Origin: Phycisphaeraceae bacterium
GTDB taxonomy: Bacteria > Planctomycetota > Phycisphaerae > Phycisphaerales > Phycisphaeraceae
DNA length: 64,000 bases
Assembly: GCA_963674705.1 (NCBI GenBank)
Contig: OY771506.1
Span: 1,728,001-1,792,000 of the forward strand
Reading direction: 5' to 3'
The first letter of the stretch is position 1. Each line of letters opens with the position of its first letter. Shown in pieces: positions 6,001-48,000 of this stretch. The position numbers were made by a program.

Positions 6001-9000
6001 CACGAGGTCTGATTTGTCCACGGCTTCACGTAACGCCGAAAGCGTCGCTTCCTTATCATCACAGACATGGACGTGATCCAGCCGTTCAACGTTGAGTTCA
6101 TGTAGAAGCGCATCGAGCATCGGGCCGTTGGCGTTTCGGATCTGTTGAGGGGCTAACGATTCGGTTGCAGTGGCTGCCGGCCGCACTTCGTCGCCGGTGC
6201 TTATGAGTGAAACACCGGGCTTGCGGTAAACGATAGGCATCACGCAGCCGACGGCAGCTGCGATACCGATGTGTTGCGGCGTTAACACCCGCCCCGTTTC
6301 GATCAATACATCCCCGCATCGCGCATCCGAACCACTTACGTGAATGAAAGCCCCGGCATTCACACGGTCCACCTCAAAGCGTACCTTACCGTCACGTTCT
6401 TCCGCCTGCTCCAGCGGGATCACCGCGTCAAACGCATCCGGCACTGAGGCCCCGGTTGCGATCGCAACGACACCATCTCCATAATTCAATGAGGCATCTA
6501 ATTCACTACCCGCCGACACGCTCGCCAACACGTTAAATACAACTTTATTATTGACCTTGCTGCTGCGTACCGCGTATCCATCCATCGTTGAACGATTAAA
6601 CGGCGGCTGGTCCCGGTCGGCCAGGATCGGCTCCGCAAGCACGCAGCCCAGTGCTGAAGCAAGCGGAACCGGTTCGGGTTCCAGTGCTTCAATCGATGCC
6701 AATACTTGCACCAGAGCCTCGTCGTAGCCCGGCAGGTTGTGTGTAGTTGGTTCGTGGACCATGCCTACATGATACGCCATCGGGGGCATAATTCTTGCAC
6801 GGATTAGCTGTTTTGCTCATCACACCGAGGGGCCCTAAACTCTGGCCATGCTTAAAGCGATCGTATTTGATTTTGACGGCGTAGTGGTCGATTCCGAGCC
6901 GCTGCATTACCAGGCCATCGTGGAAGTCAGCAAACAGTTGGGGTTTTCGTTTGATTACGAGCAATATCTCAACAAATATATCGGCTACGACGACCGGGAC
7001 GTGTTCCGCGTGATTCTTGAAGCAGCCGGCAAGCCTGTTGAAAACGCCACCGTGGTTGAGCTATCCAAACAGAAACAACTCGTGTTTGAGAAGCTGGTCA
7101 ACAGCGGCGCCGCCGCGATCCCCGGGGCGGTTGAACTGATTGATGAGGCCCACGGCCAGATCCCCATCGCGATCGCTAGCGGTGCGACGATGCTGGATAT
7201 CGAATTGATGCTTCAGTGTCTTGGTCGGCGCGATTGTTTCGAGACGATCGTCTCCGCGGACCAGGTCGAACGATCCAAGCCCGATCCGACGACGTATCGC
7301 ATGGCTGTCGAGCAACTGGCTGAGAAGTATCCCGACTTGAAACTGACACCGGGCGAATGCCTGGCGATCGAAGATACCGCGGCGGGCATCGAAGCGGCAC
7401 GTGGCGCGGGATTAATGACGCTTGGGATTTCAACGACAGGGCCGGCATCGCTGTTGTCACGGGCACACCGTGTAAATCCCGGGCTTGAAGGCGTCACGCT
7501 CGAACAACTGCGCAAGTGGTACGACGAGTGAATGTGTTGATCGTTTGATAGACCAAGACCCATTACTGTTGTATTTGATAGGACTGTTTGGAGACAGATG
7601 AGCGATTCAGCCCCTTTAATGTTGAGCGTGAGTGGGATGCGCGGCCTGGTGGGCCGATCCATCACGCCTGATGTTGTTGCACGTTATGCGGCAGCTTTTG
7701 GCAGTTGGTTAAGACAATCCACTGACGCGGCCACGCCGCATGTTGTTCTCGGGCGAGATTCCCGGCCGTCGGGGCAGATGTTTGAGATGGCTGCTGCCGC
7801 GGGCTTGATCGCTGCTGGTTGTCGTGTCACACGCATCGGCATCATCAGCACGCCCGGTGTCGCCATCATGATCGGCCACCACAAAGCCGAAGGCGGTATG
7901 GTTATCACCGCCAGCCACAACCCGATCATCTGGAACGGTGTGAAAGCCCTACGTCATGACGGCGCAGCGCCCCCCGCTGACCAGGCGGCCCAGATCATTC
8001 AGCGTTATAAAGATAGTGACCTGGATTACGTTCCCGTTGAACAACTGCACGCAAGCGGTGAAGACAACACCGGCGTGAAAGTCCACGTCGACAGCATACT
8101 ACCGCACGTCGATGTGCAAGCCATTAAAGATGCGAAGCTCAAGGCCGTGGTGGATAGCGTGAACGGCGCGGGCGGTGATGAAGCGAAAGCCTTACTCAAG
8201 GCGCTGGGAGTTGAGATCGTTCATATGTATCCCGAGCCGACAGGCATCTTCCCGCATACACCTGAACCGACCAAGGAAAACCTTACCGAGCTGAGCGCAA
8301 AGACGGCTGAATGTGGAGCCGCCATCGGCTTCGCACAAGACCCGGACGCAGATCGTTTGGCGGTGGTCGATGAAAAGGGAACCTACATCGGCGAGGAATA
8401 CACGCTGGCGTTATCTGTAATGCACTTGCTCGAATCCGGTGGTACAGCGGTCGCCAACCTGTCCACCAGCCGGATGATCGACGACATCGCGGCGAAGGTC
8501 GGCGCGAAAGTTCAACGCACGGCGGTCGGCGAAGCAAACGTGGCAGCGGGCATGGCACAATGTAGATCGGTCATCGGCGGCGAGGGTAACGGCGGCGTGA
8601 TCTGGAGCAAGGTCAGCGGCGTACGCGACAGCCTCGTCGGCATGGCCCTACTACTGGAACTGCTTGCTAAACGCGGTAAACCGCTCAGCGAACTCGTCGC
8701 TGAAGTCCCCGCATACGCCATCGTCAAGGATAAGGTTGATGCGACTCAGCAACTGATCGATCAGATCAAGCCCATTCTCTCTGAAGCATTCAAAGACCAG
8801 AAGCTCGATACTCAGGACGGCGTGCGTATTGATTGGCCCGACCGTTGGGTCCACGTACGCCCGAGCAATACCGAGCCGATCATTCGCTTGATTGCGGAAG
8901 CTTCAACGCAAGACACAGCCGAGAAGATGATCAGCGATGTGCGTGCTGCACTCGGCTTGGGCTGATCATTTGAATGATAAAAACAGATCGTGATGAATCA

Positions 9001-45000: not shown

Positions 45001-48000
45001 CCAGCAGCCTGAAAACGACAACGTTGCACATGATACGGACGAGCGCGATGATTAAATCAGCCAAACACCCGCCCGTAAAAACCATCACGCAATTGCAAGC
45101 ACTTGAGCCGACCAATGACAGCGAGCTGCACCGTTTTGTTCAGTATGCGTTTGGTTTGAACGTTCCGCGCAAGCCGATCATCGAAGGCAATACCGCGCCG
45201 TTCGATTACCTGTCCCATGCTTACTTCGAGCCGACGCCCACACTCGGACACAACCCGACGCGAGACGCGGTCGTCTGGGCGAACCGTGGCGGGGGCAAGA
45301 CCATGCTTGGTGCGGCCGCGACGCTGCTCGACATGCTATTCAAACCTGGCATCCAGATCAGCATCCTCGGCGGATCGTTCGAACAATCCTGCAAGATGCA
45401 CGATCACCTGCTCTCACTGGTCGATCGACCGTGGTTCCGACACCTGCTGCGCAGCGAACCCACGCAGCGCTACATCGAACTGTTCAACGGCAGCCGGGTG
45501 CGCATCCTCGCCGGCTCGCAACGATCGATCCGAGGCGTACGCGTCCATAAACTCCGCTGCGATGAGGTTGAAGAATTCCAACGCGATGCATGGGAGGCTG
45601 CGCAACTCGTTACACGTTCCGGTTTCTGCGGCGAAAAGTTCATCCACGGCTCCGTCGAAGCGCTCTCCACAATGCACCGCCCCTTCGGGCTCATGGCTGA
45701 GATCACACACGGCCGCAATGATGAGGAAGCCAACGAAAGAAAACTCTTCCGCTGGTCCGCCATCGATGTCATCGAAAACTGCTCCCCGTTTCGCTCATGC
45801 GAAAGCTGCGAGCTTTGGCAGGACTGTCAAGGCAAAGCCAAACACGCCCGGGGCTTTGTCGCAATCGACGACCTGATCCATCAGAAGCAGCGCACCAGCA
45901 TCCGCACGTGGGCGGCCGAGATGATGTGCCAGGAACCCGAGGTAAGCCACTGCGTTTATGCGGAGTTCGATAAAACACAGAACGTCTGTAGCAATGTTCC
46001 CGAGGTTGAAACCGGTGCATGGATCGGCGGGATGGACTTTGGCCTGCGCAACCCCACCGTCATGCTCTGGGCACGTGTCGGCCCGCCAGATCACGACCCG
46101 ACACAGCGCACGATCCAAATCATCGATGAATACATCAAAGGCGAATTGATCTTCGATAAACACCTCGAAGCGATCCACACACGCGCCGAGTTGCAAGGTT
46201 GGCCACGCGTTGACTGGTTGGGTGCGGACCCGGCAGGTAACCAGCGCAACAGCCATTCTGGCGTCAGCGATGTGCAGGTCCTGCGCACCTCGGGCTACAC
46301 CGTCCGCACGCGTCAATCACACATCAGCGACGGTATCGAACGCATCCGCCGACGACTCGACCACGGCACCCTCTTCATCCACCCGCGCTGCCAGCAACTG
46401 ATCAAAGCGATCCAGTCCTATCACTACGATGTGAAAAATCCCCACCGAGAAGAACCGATCAAGGACGGGCCGGACCACCTGTGCGACGCTCTTCGCTATA
46501 TGGTTGTTAATTTGGAATTAGGATCGGGGAAGGTAGTTGTTGAGAGGTATTGAGCAGGGTGTAGGGTGTTGGGTTTAGGGTGTAGGGTATTGAGAATGAG
46601 CGCGGTGCAACCCCTGCGGATCATGATCCACAGGGAATAAGGGCGATAAACAAGAATAGAAAGAAACGATGAATGGAGCTTAGCCGATAACTTCTTGACC
46701 CTACACCCAACACCCTAAACCCTACACCCCGCCCTACTTCCTCTTCTTCCCAAACGGCAGCAGCGCCCGCAGCATCATTGTTGCGCCGGAGTCGTGCTCT
46801 CGGCGTTCGTTTTCCGCTTCGTGCAGGTGGTCGATCTCAGCCTGGAACTTTTTCTCCGCGTTGCGCTGGTAACGCTTGGCCTGCAGGTCGTCGTCGAACT
46901 CGTCGAGCGTGAACGCCATGATCGTGTGGCCGATCTGGATGGCGTCACCCTCGTGCAGGATCTTGAACTTGATGACACGTTCGCCGTTGACGAATACGCC
47001 GTTGTGGCTGTCCATGTCGACGGCGTAGTAGCAGCCGTCGCTTGACTCGAGCCGAACCTCCATGTGGTTGCGTGAAACGCAAGCGTCCTTGATCTGAGCG
47101 AGCAGTTTGCTGTCTCGGCCGAACATGAACGCACGCTTGCCGATGGTGTACCACTCGCCCTTGTTATTGCCGTTGAGCACAACGATTGTCGCCATACGAA
47201 GATGCCTCCCATCGACATGAAAGCCGACATGCCCCTGACCGAAGGTCAATCAGTGCACCGCAGTATAACCGCCAACCGCATGGGTTGGTCAAGTCCACGG
47301 TATCAAGATTCGGATGAATGCCTGTGCCGATAAAGTGAATTGCAGTACAACCCGGCATTATTCCCGCAAATTGCTGCGCTTGATCAGGCACATCCTCACA
47401 TCGCCCGGGCGTGTCGTCCAGATAAGATCAGAGACGACAACCGCATCGTCACCATCGTTCCAAGGCCGAACGAGCCAGGCCGCATCAGGATCACCCTCAT
47501 CACCGGGGATATGGTTGTATCCCAACAGCGGTTGGATCGGCGTGTAATCCGTATTTTCGAAACGGATCGGTTCACCTTGCGTGTGAGACTGCACATCTTT
47601 ACAGAACGCAACGACGTTATCGCCGAGTTGATCGACCGCTGCGGGTGAGAAGAACAATTCGTAAATGGTCAGCACGATCGCAAAAATCAAGCCGAGCGCC
47701 GCCGGCTGCCACGGACGCAAACGCAACAGCCGTTTGCCTTCAACGATCAACCAGAACGCAGCAAGCACACCCGCCGCGGGGTACGCCGGCGCGAGGTAAT
47801 CTGCGCGCTTGCCGCCGGACAGGCTGAAGAAAATGATCACTAACAGCACCCACCCCATTGCCGCTCCAAGCGGACCGCTGAACCAATCCCGCTTCTGCTT
47901 CGCCGCGAACACGTGCCAGATGCCCATGGCAGCGAAGATCGACCACGGGAAAAACTTCGCCACGAAGTAGGCCGGCATCTTATATAGTTCGAGCACAATC

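Follow-up and report, generated by a model that had tools for sequence, protein, structure and literature searches.

Phage-derived head and packaging modules in the chromosomes of Phycisphaerae: a domesticated and possibly gene-transfer-agent-like system

The window analysed here is a 64,000-nt stretch of Phycisphaeraceae bacterium GCA_963674705.1 (contig OY771506.1), and all coordinates are positions within it. It contains two phage-derived modules separated by 18.5 kb: a head module (8998..22264, minus strand) built around portal, scaffold and major capsid genes, and a packaging module (40801..46553) with genes for a CI-like repressor, a sigma-region-4-like HTH protein, an ABC ATPase, a GNAT protein, a ParB-N protein, a putative small terminase subunit (TerS) and the large subunit (TerL). 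Pfam and PHROG matches confirm the two-module phage-derived locus proposed in an earlier note on this DNA. Its statements that integrase and replication genes are lacking and that the locus is single-copy are also borne out, as no integrase, replication gene or tRNA was found among the 59 ORFs of the 64-kb window and each module gene occurs once in the genome. The structural genes of the head are:

20792..22264, minus strand: portal (Pfam SPP1_portal, E 3e-18; PHROG 64; 40/41 head loci; dN/dS 0.07)
20210..20740, minus strand: scaffold (PHROG 2303, weak, E 4e-4; Pfam Phage_scaffold below cut-off; 34/41 loci)
18980..20149, minus strand: major capsid protein, SU10 type (Pfam SU10_MCP, E 4e-88; PHROG 1328; dN/dS 0.03)
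18227..18865, minus strand: g212, likely head-tail adaptor, judged from its position and a weak resemblance

The capsid protein matches PDB structures 9ny2 and 7z45, and its closest match in a cultured phage is 32% identical. The g212 gene lies directly 3' of the capsid gene in 38 of 41 head loci and has orthologues in 81 of 150 genomes (two weak matches excluded); Mu gp36 is present in 24% of the members of its Atlas neighbour cluster (score 0.93), and the predicted product is likely a head-tail adaptor. Tail-region genes and one insertion follow:

17828..18196, minus strand: g122, predicted distal-tail or tube-initiator-like ring protein (19/41 head loci)
17100..17831, minus strand: g243, tail-region protein (17/41 head loci; relative in the G119 element)
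16613..17065, minus strand: g169, tail-region protein (15/41 head loci; relatives in prophage-like elements)
15477..16521, minus strand: IS630 with two-frame transposase, between two genes (inverted ends, TA duplication; NCBIfam transpos_IS630)
14776..15450, minus strand: LamG/concanavalin-like protein (Pfam Laminin_G_3; 6/41 head loci)
12650..14791, minus strand: g713, large protein with TIGR03790-like domain (NCBIfam E 5e-11, below cut-off; 18/41 head loci)
10878..12653, minus strand: g591, predicted tail/baseplate hub (feature likeness, weak profile matches, context of relatives)

One member of the g122 family weakly matches Pfam DNA_circ_N (E 0.0025) and a GpU-like PHROG (E 0.17). The LamG-like protein is likely a variable fibre or receptor-binding protein, and we infer a tail-tip or receptor role for g713. 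The Atlas features of g591 lie near phage tail clusters (0.91-0.92), its profile gives weak matches to 7aef_q (E 0.0065) and Pvc8 (E 1), and its relatives sit in phage tail regions. A full-length orthologue of this predicted hub is present in 38 of 90 capsid-bearing genomes and was not found in the other 52, closed genomes among them. Twenty of the 41 head loci have a short form, in which portal, scaffold, capsid, adaptor and terminase occur without a tail and with no tail-terminator-like gene; in the genome of the window itself no tail tube, tape measure or endolysin was identified. IS630 is a recent insertion that separates two head-module genes but does not belong to the system; it has 11 genomic copies at 98-100% identity and is missing at the corresponding site of a 91%-identical genome (G393).

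The head operon ends in small membrane and lipoprotein genes, which outlast the tail genes across head loci:

10586..10855, minus strand: 89-aa coiled-coil protein with a single hydrophobic segment at the N-terminus (25/41 head loci; dN/dS 0.02)
10114..10611, minus strand: lipoprotein with long coiled coil (15/41 head loci; dN/dS 0.17)
9864..10121, minus strand: 85-aa conserved soluble helical protein (13/41 head loci; dN/dS 0.16)
9582..9827, minus strand: 81-aa protein with two hydrophobic segments (hydropathy; cluster c38 in families f1, f3 and f5; dN/dS 0.04)
8998..9546, minus strand: lipoprotein with conserved beta-rich domain at the operon end, start inferred (16/41 head loci; dN/dS 0.10)

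The 89-aa protein is likely a holin, presumably of the BhlA/UviB type; one member matches PHROG 2429 (E 1e-6), the rest more weakly, and other small membrane genes replace it in families f11, f15 and f17. The 81-aa protein, with no significant match in a family profile search, is holin-like by shape only, and the coiled-coil lipoprotein may play a spanin-like role. The terminal lipoprotein has a conserved lipobox-like cysteine and no family match; its gene is inverted in family f8 and may be a co-located host gene.

The packaging module comprises:

40801..41667, minus strand: CI-like repressor, HTH and S24 autopeptidase (Pfam; PHROG 4)
41779..42195, plus strand: tandem sigma-region-4-like HTH protein (32/38 packaging loci; dN/dS 0.01)
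42267..42941, plus strand: phage-type ABC ATPase (PHROG 293, E 2e-29; 34/38 packaging loci)
42941..43741, plus strand: GNAT acyltransferase (PHROG 886; relatives match Pfam GNAT; 33/38 packaging loci)
43848..44423, plus strand: ParB-N domain protein (Pfam ParB_N; 17/38 packaging loci)
44594..45055, plus strand: putative TerS (relative matches PHROG 2538 TerS, E 4e-4; 22/38 loci)
45024..46553, plus strand: TerL with four-cysteine insert (conserved motifs; dN/dS 0.11)

The CI-like repressor retains the catalytic serine and lysine, a pattern search recovering the serine motif in 22/22 and the lysine motif in 17/22 such repressors; its gene, present in 109 of 150 genomes, is often displaced from the packaging operon. 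The sigma-region-4-like protein profile matches sigma region 4 and KorA structures (E 1e-7), and it is predicted to be a late-gene activator. For the ABC ATPase and GNAT we predict DNA base acylation; such pairs are described as a predicted DNA-modifying system that acylates a DNA base (PMC7824862). In 21 TerL sequences the Walker A and B motifs, the nuclease aspartates and the four cysteines are invariant or nearly so.

Candidate control features lie near both operons:

22514..24130, plus strand: GAF-sigma54 activator (Pfam; divergent neighbour of portal, own family only)
22435..22456, minus strand: direct-repeat box, candidate DNA-damage operator (the genome's top score, 29 bits)
22322..22352, minus strand: two-part conserved element GCGC.CA ... 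CCAAGGGTG upstream of portal, candidate late promoter
41686..41703, no strand assigned: palindrome GTTCA-N8-TGAAC, candidate second operator (second copy 42235-42252)
41710..41759, plus strand: sigma70-type promoter (11/12 consensus bases), overlapped by a degenerate direct-repeat box

The matrix for the 11-bp direct-repeat box was trained on packaging promoters of 13 other genomes, and in a genome-wide scan its best score falls upstream of the head operon, between the portal gene and the divergent sigma54 activator. Six genome sites exceed 20 bits, versus 1 and 1 in shuffles, and reversed or permuted matrices give 0-2 sites. The box is common to the head operon, recA (with five half-sites upstream), a Y-family polymerase gene and a PA0069-family radical SAM gene, and is therefore a pointer to DNA-damage control; recA also carries it in G091, G096 and G004 (3/5 genomes scanned). 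Two of the six top sites flank non-repair genes, and in this genome, which also encodes a canonical LexA, the box was not found upstream of the lexA operon or the second Y-family gene. It scores at least 15 bits at the packaging promoter in 14/32 genomes (leave-one-out) and reaches that score at 2/40 head promoters and 3/20 recA promoters only; at the packaging promoter of this genome it is degenerate, with two half-sites and 9.4 bits. The head-operon site could instead serve the sigma54 activator, which is probably a host gene: the flanking activator of the earlier note is present at 6/6 head loci of its own family and at 0/35 others, and a sigma54-like motif occurs in 1/40 portal upstream regions. 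Of 40 regions upstream of portal genes, 18 contain one part of the GCGC.CA element and 13 the other, against means of 5.6 and 2.7 in shuffles; the whole pattern occurs twice in the genome. The palindrome is found at 6/32 packaging promoters, versus 0.1 in shuffles, and 2 of its only 6 genome copies are in the packaging operon.

The system is less widespread than the term class-wide had implied, as the capsid gene, nearly always in one copy, is confined to 12 of 21 families; of 150 further Phycisphaerae genomes 89 have it, and none was found in the 30 that represent the remaining 9 families. Full-length capsid matches within the class are 54-73% identical. TerL orthologues are present in 90/150 genomes (107 matches, minus 14 weak and 3 prophage-type), and the family ranges of capsid, TerL, adaptor-like gene and CI-like repressor largely match. 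The CI-like repressor is still found in two families (f8 and f13) most of whose genomes have no capsid gene, and in G007, a closed genome, the packaging operon has been retained with its box in the absence of portal, capsid and adaptor genes. The description as intact holds for most capsid genes, but 8/89 are in pieces, and three broken ones contain 7-39 kb inserts.

Purifying selection was reproduced, with dN/dS against G393 of 0.01-0.28 for 22 module genes and 0.01-0.19 for 10 host neighbours; in two tailless pairs, capsid, portal, adaptor and TerL give 0.08-0.16. Vertical descent was likewise recovered, the trees largely following RpoB: supported splits are identical for 13/14 (TerL), 10/14 (portal) and 8/17 (capsid), and 5/17 capsid splits conflict. 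In the 28 genomes with both modules on one contig, they lie 3.5-982 kb apart and therefore cannot be excised as one unit. Single copy, split modules, host-like dN/dS, RpoB-like trees and the box common to recA make it well supported that the modules are domesticated and of ancient-phage origin rather than a prophage. The earlier observation of a two-module domesticated locus is thus partly confirmed, and its interpretation as a GTA-like element partly supported: against a classical GTA stand the missing hub orthologues, the failure to find an endolysin, tube or tape measure in the window genome, and the head-less G007.

Prophage-like relatives whose genes are contiguous and in almost the same order occur sporadically in G119, G042 and G005 (the G005 element was followed up to the portal) and show the type of the ancestor. 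Three records among the viral matches examined (G398, G399 and G402) encode a terminase and a portal unrelated to those of the host, and in two of them a capsid of their own is recognised as well. In each, a host-type capsid gene lies in addition within the early or replication genes, unaccompanied by host portal or adaptor. These copies nest inside host clades (96-99% bootstrap), so the gene was captured at least twice; G398 also captured the C-terminal end of the scaffold, and the G402 copy is shortened by about 100 residues. A parallel element is present in 19/20 genomes of a second class in this phylum. This class, the phage-borne capsids, the damage box, the holin-like genes and IS630 are absent from the earlier note.

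Head and packaging genes carry a candidate control box that is common to DNA-repair genes, which makes DNA-filled particles on DNA damage likely. The reading we prefer, with confidence about evenly balanced, is a damage-induced, gene-transfer-agent-like particle whose ancient-phage head and packaging genes are kept by vertical inheritance. Activated RecA would cleave the box-binding repressor, either host LexA or the CI-like protein, both of which have S24 domains; the strong packaging promoter would then fire, and the sigma-region-4-like activator would turn on the portal promoter. An RcGTA activator also contains a sigma-like region (PMC6363796). As the element has no genome of its own to replicate, TerS and TerL would cut and pack pieces of the host chromosome, and the packed pieces may be acylated by the ABC-GNAT pair. 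Holin-like and lipoprotein genes would release particles, killing a few cells, and the DNA could serve kin as a template for repair or recombination, as Caulobacter GTA DNA is described to repair breaks (PMC9632790). Where a lineage has the short tail tip, which lacks a tape measure, the DNA would be delivered through it; tailless lineages would need recipient uptake (ComEC, which is present) or borrowed phage tails.

The main alternative, which we consider unlikely yet weighty, is an anti-phage device: infection or prophage induction would trigger the damage response, host terminase and heads would cut or sequester phage DNA or poison assembly, holin-like genes would kill early, and a captured capsid would act as a decoy. 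Capture of the capsid gene by phages fits such a conflict role better than gene transfer, repeated tail loss would be harmless to it, and the 7-39 kb inserts in broken capsid genes are also in its favour. However, among the viral matches examined the phage-borne gene is limited to those three records, phages might benefit from the particle through it and not obstruct it, PADLOC matches are limited to generic HTH, ATPase and ParB domains, and tail-tip and lectin genes conserved in 38/90 genomes suggest delivery to cells.

Rather improbable is a particle without a transfer role, a compartment with or without DNA that would serve adhesion, storage or extracellular DNA, with the shell released or anchored to the membrane by the small lipoproteins and the packaging operon perhaps having a partly separate damage-response role. 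The persistence of the small genes beyond the tail genes, of packaging without head genes in G007, and of CI beyond both modules would suit it, but the motor and nuclease motifs of TerL, like the portal, vary little or not at all and have ranges matching that of the capsid, and therefore indicate active DNA packaging. We regard as quite improbable a transfer agent whose host-DNA-filled heads are completed by tails of co-infecting phages, its own tail genes being dispensable. The tailless short form in 20/41 head loci, the precedent of capsid-forming PICIs (cf-PICIs), whose tailless capsids take up phage tails (as described in 10.1101/2025.02.11.637232) and the expected coincidence of damage and prophage induction argue for this; the lack of integrase, replication gene and any sign of interspecies spread, a short form without tail-terminator-like gene and an only putative adaptor argue against it. 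A recurring or decaying prophage is very improbable: despite IS630 in this strain, the broken capsid genes and the contiguous relatives, it is largely refuted by copy number, split layout, dN/dS, trees and capsid identity (54-73% between hosts, at most 32% to cultured phages).

Literature searches did not find a description of this Phycisphaerae system. RcGTA-type GTAs, which belong to Alphaproteobacteria, are described as phage-derived genes in stable chromosome regions that evolve slowly and do not self-propagate (PMC5721377, PMC9632790), with a control circuit of sigma-like activator and LexA/CI-like repressor (PMC6363796, PMC9632790). The Phycisphaerae system resembles those of Rhodobacter capsulatus and Caulobacter crescentus in its stable phage-derived genes, several loci and DNA-repair link, and in its predicted activator and repressor. 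It differs in its SU10-type capsid, separate scaffold and SPP1-type portal, the RcGTA counterparts belonging to other families; in that neither a tube nor a tape measure nor an endolysin was identified in the window genome; in loss of the tail tip in most lineages; and in including ABC-GNAT-ParB. Caulobacter RogA lacks the catalytic residues that the CI-like repressor retains, and the box common to recA suggests direct damage induction. The ABC-GNAT pair resembles the phage pair in coupling ATPase to acyltransferase with predicted base acylation (PMC7824862), but, its own activity being likewise predicted, is fixed in a host chromosome ahead of terminase. The non-canonical LexA of Bacteroidetes and streptococcal HdiR are described as phage-derived SOS repressors with penta-helical HTH and S24 domains, in bacteria without a bona fide LexA (PMC8565304); here, too, an HTH-S24 repressor derived from a phage may regulate recA and polymerase genes, but a canonical LexA is present, phage particle genes are also kept, and the box-binding protein, LexA or CI, is only predicted. 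Like cf-PICIs, the short form has its own capsid and packaging genes and no tail, whereas cf-PICIs are 10-15 kb, excisable, replicating and horizontally spread and pack their own DNA, and the Phycisphaerae system is split, non-mobile and vertically inherited. The prophage-like relatives in G119 and G042, and that in G005 as far as it was followed, have CI, ParB, ABC-GNAT, TerS, TerL, portal, scaffold, capsid and adaptor in common with the Phycisphaerae system, together with its tail-tip genes, and likewise show no tape measure; these relatives are sporadic, in two copies in G119, with other capsid and portal families and a TerL only 32-34% identical.

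Two phage-derived blocks, 18.5 kb apart, are embedded among the housekeeping genes of the 64-kb window, and the phage-derived head and packaging genes within them are intact.

8998-22264, minus strand: head block, with portal, scaffold, SU10-type capsid, g212, g122, g243, g169, a LamG protein, g713, g591, then five small membrane/lipoprotein genes
15477-16521: IS630 element between head-block genes, with 11 near-identical copies in the genome
40801-46553: packaging block, with a divergent CI-like repressor, a 138-aa HTH protein, ABC ATPase, GNAT, ParB-N, putative TerS and TerL

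The capsid and portal carry the family labels SU10_MCP and SPP1_portal. As the earlier note had claimed, we found no integrase or replication gene among the 59 ORFs of the window or the 28 ORFs of the modules, and every module gene is present once in the 5.5-Mb genome; no tRNA was found in the window. The IS630 element, overlooked previously, is missing at the same site in a 91%-identical genome (G393) and disrupts no gene, and it could exert a polar effect on the genes downstream. A genome search with Pfam Terminase_6C did not detect the known TerL and is therefore uninformative on other terminases. The ParB gene is flanked by intergenic stretches (43750-43850 and 44420-44590) with short repeats and strong strand skew, and 55663-63164 is an ordinary chemotaxis cluster (CheW, CheR, CheA, CheX, FapA, CheB).

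The assignments of adaptor, hub and ring proteins are based on position, Atlas features and weak profile matches. By its position and Atlas neighbour g212 is adaptor-like, and g591 looks like a tail hub, with Atlas features, relatives in phage tail regions and a weak profile match to 7aef_q, presumably an injection-system baseplate entry. An 89-aa membrane gene encodes a product that resembles a holin, one member matching PHROG 2429 (E 1e-6), which we take to be the BhlA/UviB holin-like group. In the window genome we saw neither tail tube nor tape measure, and in its modules no endolysin, the same result as reported before; an amidase at 49064-49837 was considered as an endolysin and rejected, having a lipoprotein-type start and no conservation beside TerL. 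Among 41 head loci, 18 are of a long form with tail-tip genes (one cut by a contig end), three have only ring-like genes, and 20 are short, with g212 followed directly by small membrane genes or host genes; the window's own locus has tail-tip-like genes and is not of the short form. Genome-wide searches recovered a full-length g591 orthologue in 38 of 90 capsid-bearing genomes and none in families f2 (0/7), f8 (0/21), f10 (0/21) and f17 (0/3, all single-contig genomes), while five genomes of f15 have only a distant relative elsewhere in the genome. Placed on the RpoB tree, this distribution of tail absence needs several separate losses, as judged from the predicted hub.

Range was determined in one fixed set of 150 other genomes of the class, each at least 90% complete. 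The capsid is present in 89 of them, in 12 of 21 families, with full-length matches 54-73% identical; TerL orthologues are found in 90 (107 matches minus 14 weak and 3 prophage-type), g212 in 81 (83 minus 2 weak) and the CI-like repressor in 109. None of these four was found in the searched genomes of f4, f7, f16, f19, f20 and f21. The description of the locus as class-wide thus holds for its presence in most sampled genomes but not for all families. Similarly, most capsid genes are whole, as had been stated, but 8 of the 89 are in pieces, and the proposal that such pieces reflect insertions applies to three genes with 7-39 kb inserts and not to the others, of which one is inverted and the rest are truncated, deleted or split by contig ends. 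These interruptions, 39-, 13- and 7-kb inserts or an inversion, are seen at L304-L306 (G129), L307 (G015), L308 (G020) and L309 (G117); two of the breaks are at about codon 60, and the insert in G129 contains a distant second capsid gene. Judged by their record titles, most of the best capsid matches come from Phycisphaerae. Across a sample of the phylum, a capsid match is present in 31 of 251 genomes, and those outside the class are mostly from a second class, in which the capsid is found in 19 of 20 genomes at about 49-52%. There the block has the order portal-scaffold-capsid-adaptor-tail-like, lies among host genes, and is accompanied by a distant TerL, which in G259, a genome with no lexA match, is preceded by an ABC-GNAT fusion; this element could be either a parallel or a shared ancient capture. 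At loci L116-L126 of this class the head and tail-like block is single-copy, with a different TerL elsewhere, and in f62 it adjoins arginyl-tRNA synthetase-like genes. A suggestion that these are anammox bacteria was rejected, Pfam HZS_alpha being found in 0 of 5 genomes.

The modules have largely evolved with their hosts. Relative to G393, dN/dS is 0.01-0.28 for 22 module genes (0.03 for the capsid) and 0.01-0.19 for 10 host neighbours, bearing out the purifying selection that had been proposed, and in two tailless pairs it is 0.08-0.16 for capsid, portal, g212 and TerL; these values are from close pairs only because synonymous sites are saturated in distant pairs, whose medians are unusable. 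Synonymous divergence from G393 is higher at 14776-18196 (LamG, g169, g243 and g122; 0.44-0.77) than in other module genes (0.06-0.38), hinting that the tail region has recombined. Supported splits identical to those of RpoB number 13/14 for TerL (one conflict), 10/14 for the portal (one) and 8/17 for the capsid (five), with rank correlations of tree distances of 0.72, 0.30 and 0.44 respectively, in a comparison made without the outgroups, G032, and G127 and G147, which have partial RpoB. The RpoB frames of several relatives (L237, L267-L270) are split by large, intein-like in-frame inserts. In 21 sequences TerL retains the Walker motifs, the aspartates of the nuclease and the insert with four cysteines. 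The head and packaging blocks are 3.5 to 982 kb apart in the 28 genomes with both on one contig and, without integrase or replication genes, they cannot propagate as one unit. We consider it nearly certain that the system is domesticated.

The best match to a capsid from a cultured phage is 32%. In G081 TerS, TerL and portal are still in a row, and contiguous, sporadic relatives are found in G119 (two copies), G042 and G005; they lack a tape measure, have a capsid of another family, differ little in gene order, and are likely of the ancestor type. Prophage-like relatives at L289, L291, L292 and L108-L110 are contiguous, share the gene order and lack a tape measure; they are possibly a short-tailed phage family of Phycisphaerae.

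To examine control of the two blocks we used the region before the HTH gene, which in the window genome has a near-consensus promoter and a repeat (ATACC.AACAT..CCTAACAT-like) whose period is 11 bases; 13 of 32 genomes have the half-site of this repeat, compared to 0.3 in shuffles. A matrix for this 11-bp direct-repeat box, built from 13 packaging-promoter sites of other genomes, gives six sites above 20 bits in the window genome, one in each of two shuffled genomes, and 0-2 when the matrix is reversed or permuted. Four of the six sites are:

22435-22456: top-scoring box genome-wide, upstream of the portal gene
G000:C1:3721400-3721520, 2735605, 5458752: candidate DNA-damage operator sites at recA, a Y-family polymerase gene and a PA0069-family radical SAM gene

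The recA promoter carries five half-sites, and the head-operon box also faces the sigma54 activator. Two of the six top sites adjoin non-repair genes, and the candidate operator is seen upstream of rplM and in the gap that separates a LacI-type gene from a gene for a secreted protein. The chance of three repair-gene sites among six is about 1e-6, a rough estimate for which the null, chosen post hoc, assumed ten repair genes and considered intergenic DNA only. With leave-one-out scores of at least 15 bits the box is found at 14/32 packaging, 2/40 head and 3/20 recA promoters and at 0/92 rpoB flanks, and a wider scan adds head-promoter sites at this threshold in G393 and G396. A pattern search places it at recA in 3 of 5 genomes, where the pattern totals are not above a reversed-pattern control, so that placement alone is informative. 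The window genome's own packaging-promoter site scores only 9.4 bits. The candidate operator is common to recA and other repair genes, as a LexA (SOS) regulon requires.

The S24 candidates for binding the box are a canonical LexA and the element's CI, and on these sequences we treat the two as equal candidates. No box was found before lexA in the window genome, and in G004 one exact match lies 1.3 kb upstream of this gene; G116 has boxes at both modules and no CI match, which leans to LexA. The range of CI in the 150-genome sample did not separate the two. CI is retained even where it has moved out of the operon or the capsid is gone: it is kept in 19 of 21 f8 and 3 of 4 f13 genomes, of which only five and none respectively have the capsid. 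In the single-contig genome G007 (L074) the packaging operon is intact and its box strong, yet portal, capsid, g212 and g591 were not found. The CI-like repressor may have a host role of its own; available text of PMC8565304 describes phage-type repressors that run the SOS response in Bacteroidetes. We found no published description of a LexA or SOS motif for Planctomycetes among titles and abstract openings, and the box is a candidate damage-response operator for the class.

Other control elements include a separate palindrome found twice in the packaging operon and a two-part element upstream of the portal. Motif learning by EM returned 19 sites for the portal element (12-15 in shuffles) and 24 for the box (11-15); since it found so many shuffle sites, we relied on control regions, fixed patterns and leave-one-out scores. 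Used to look for missing genes, the head-promoter pattern gave one other site in the genome, with no phage-like gene there. Sigma54 control of the head operon was rejected as a general feature, a sigma54-like motif being present in 1 of 40 portal upstream regions and the flanking activator being family-specific. The HTH protein has two sigma-region-4-like units, recalling a region of the RcGTA activator that resembles a sigma factor (PMC6363796, in excerpt).

Why hosts keep gene transfer agents is a long-standing question to which DNA repair is one proposed answer, and promoters sharing an operator with recA would give a ready trigger, DNA damage. Damage would activate RecA and lead to repressor cleavage; the packaging operon and its activator would then switch on the head operon, host DNA would be packed, perhaps acylated by the ABC-GNAT pair (DNA acylation by such a pair is predicted in a section of PMC7824862), and a few cells would lyse, the packed DNA being used by kin for repair or recombination, as shown for the Caulobacter gene transfer agent in part of PMC9632790. 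ComEC is present in the window genome, but it is common (10/14 controls). A damage-induced role of this kind reaches beyond the observed gene content, conservation and shared box, and we judge it the most likely reading, at about even odds.

An alternative explanation is that the system acts against phages, and the copies of its capsid carried by phages bear on this. Three viral records (G398, G399 and G402) encode their own terminase and portal, and all three carry, next to genes of early or replication functions, a capsid gene of the host type:

L294:12983-14432, L298:15337-16491, L300:2759-4024: captured host-type capsid genes in early regions of phage records

G398 and G399 have terminal repeats, G399 is 100% complete, and an unrelated capsid was recognised in G398 and G402 as well. 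One captured copy retains the C-terminal end of the scaffold and another has lost about 100 residues from its interior. A maximum-likelihood tree of 52 rows places the captured genes within f5 (96/93, 99/94) and with f15 and f11 (99/93), that of G402 on a long branch. Since the host genes track the species tree, the direction is host to phage, with at least two captures. The system's portal and its full-length hub were found in the viral collection only in G400, a host-like fragment containing the head module in full, which we rejected as a phage capture and did not count. In viral contigs L339-L346 the closest TerL relative (36-41%) is encoded as an ATPase gene and a separate nuclease gene, and some of these contigs carry several nuclease-like copies. 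The captured capsid could serve as a decoy or as a hijack, both being possible, and its presence suggests that the particle matters in phage-host conflict. PADLOC reported generic domains only, and we regard anti-phage action of the system as unlikely. We are just as doubtful of a broader interpretation, in which the DNA-damage response of the whole class took up an ancient phage, its repressor may run recA and repair genes, its heads are made upon damage and function tail-free in most lineages, and phages have repeatedly stolen the capsid to jam or exploit the system; if true, this would be a host-owned capsid system acting in phage conflict and more than one additional gene transfer agent, and a second class would have a parallel element. 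Some other particle role and tail borrowing as in cf-PICIs (10.1101/2025.02.11.637232, in excerpt) both seem to us quite improbable.

The likeness to cf-PICIs is that the short form (20/41 head loci) has its own capsid and packaging genes and no tail. A cf-PICI, however, is a single 10-15 kb island that excises and replicates, with near-identical copies across species, whereas here the modules are split and without integrase, and divergence follows the host tree. Unlike a prophage, the system is not contiguous, has no integrase or replication genes and is not patchy among relatives, and we conclude that it belongs to neither group. It differs from a LexA (SOS) regulon in that the operator before lexA is missing in the window genome. 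In contrast, it has the intact phage-derived genes, inability to self-propagate as a unit, vertical inheritance and purifying selection of a gene transfer agent, genomic criteria that we take from excerpted text of PMC5721377.

The known independent origins of gene transfer agents are few. Compared with these agents, a hub-like gene is present in 38 of 90 capsid-bearing genomes, and neither a tube nor a tape measure was found in the window genome; of a lysis cassette, a predicted holin-like gene is present and an endolysin was not found in the modules; and host control would be through the candidate box shared with recA and repair genes. The natural tailed and tailless versions raise the question of whether such a particle needs a tail. 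Titles and abstract openings gave no published account of a gene transfer agent or phage-derived capsid-terminase system in Phycisphaerae or Planctomycetes. By genomic criteria the system works like a gene transfer agent, one known here from its genes, and we conclude that it is real and domesticated, and a new form of phage-derived particle system.
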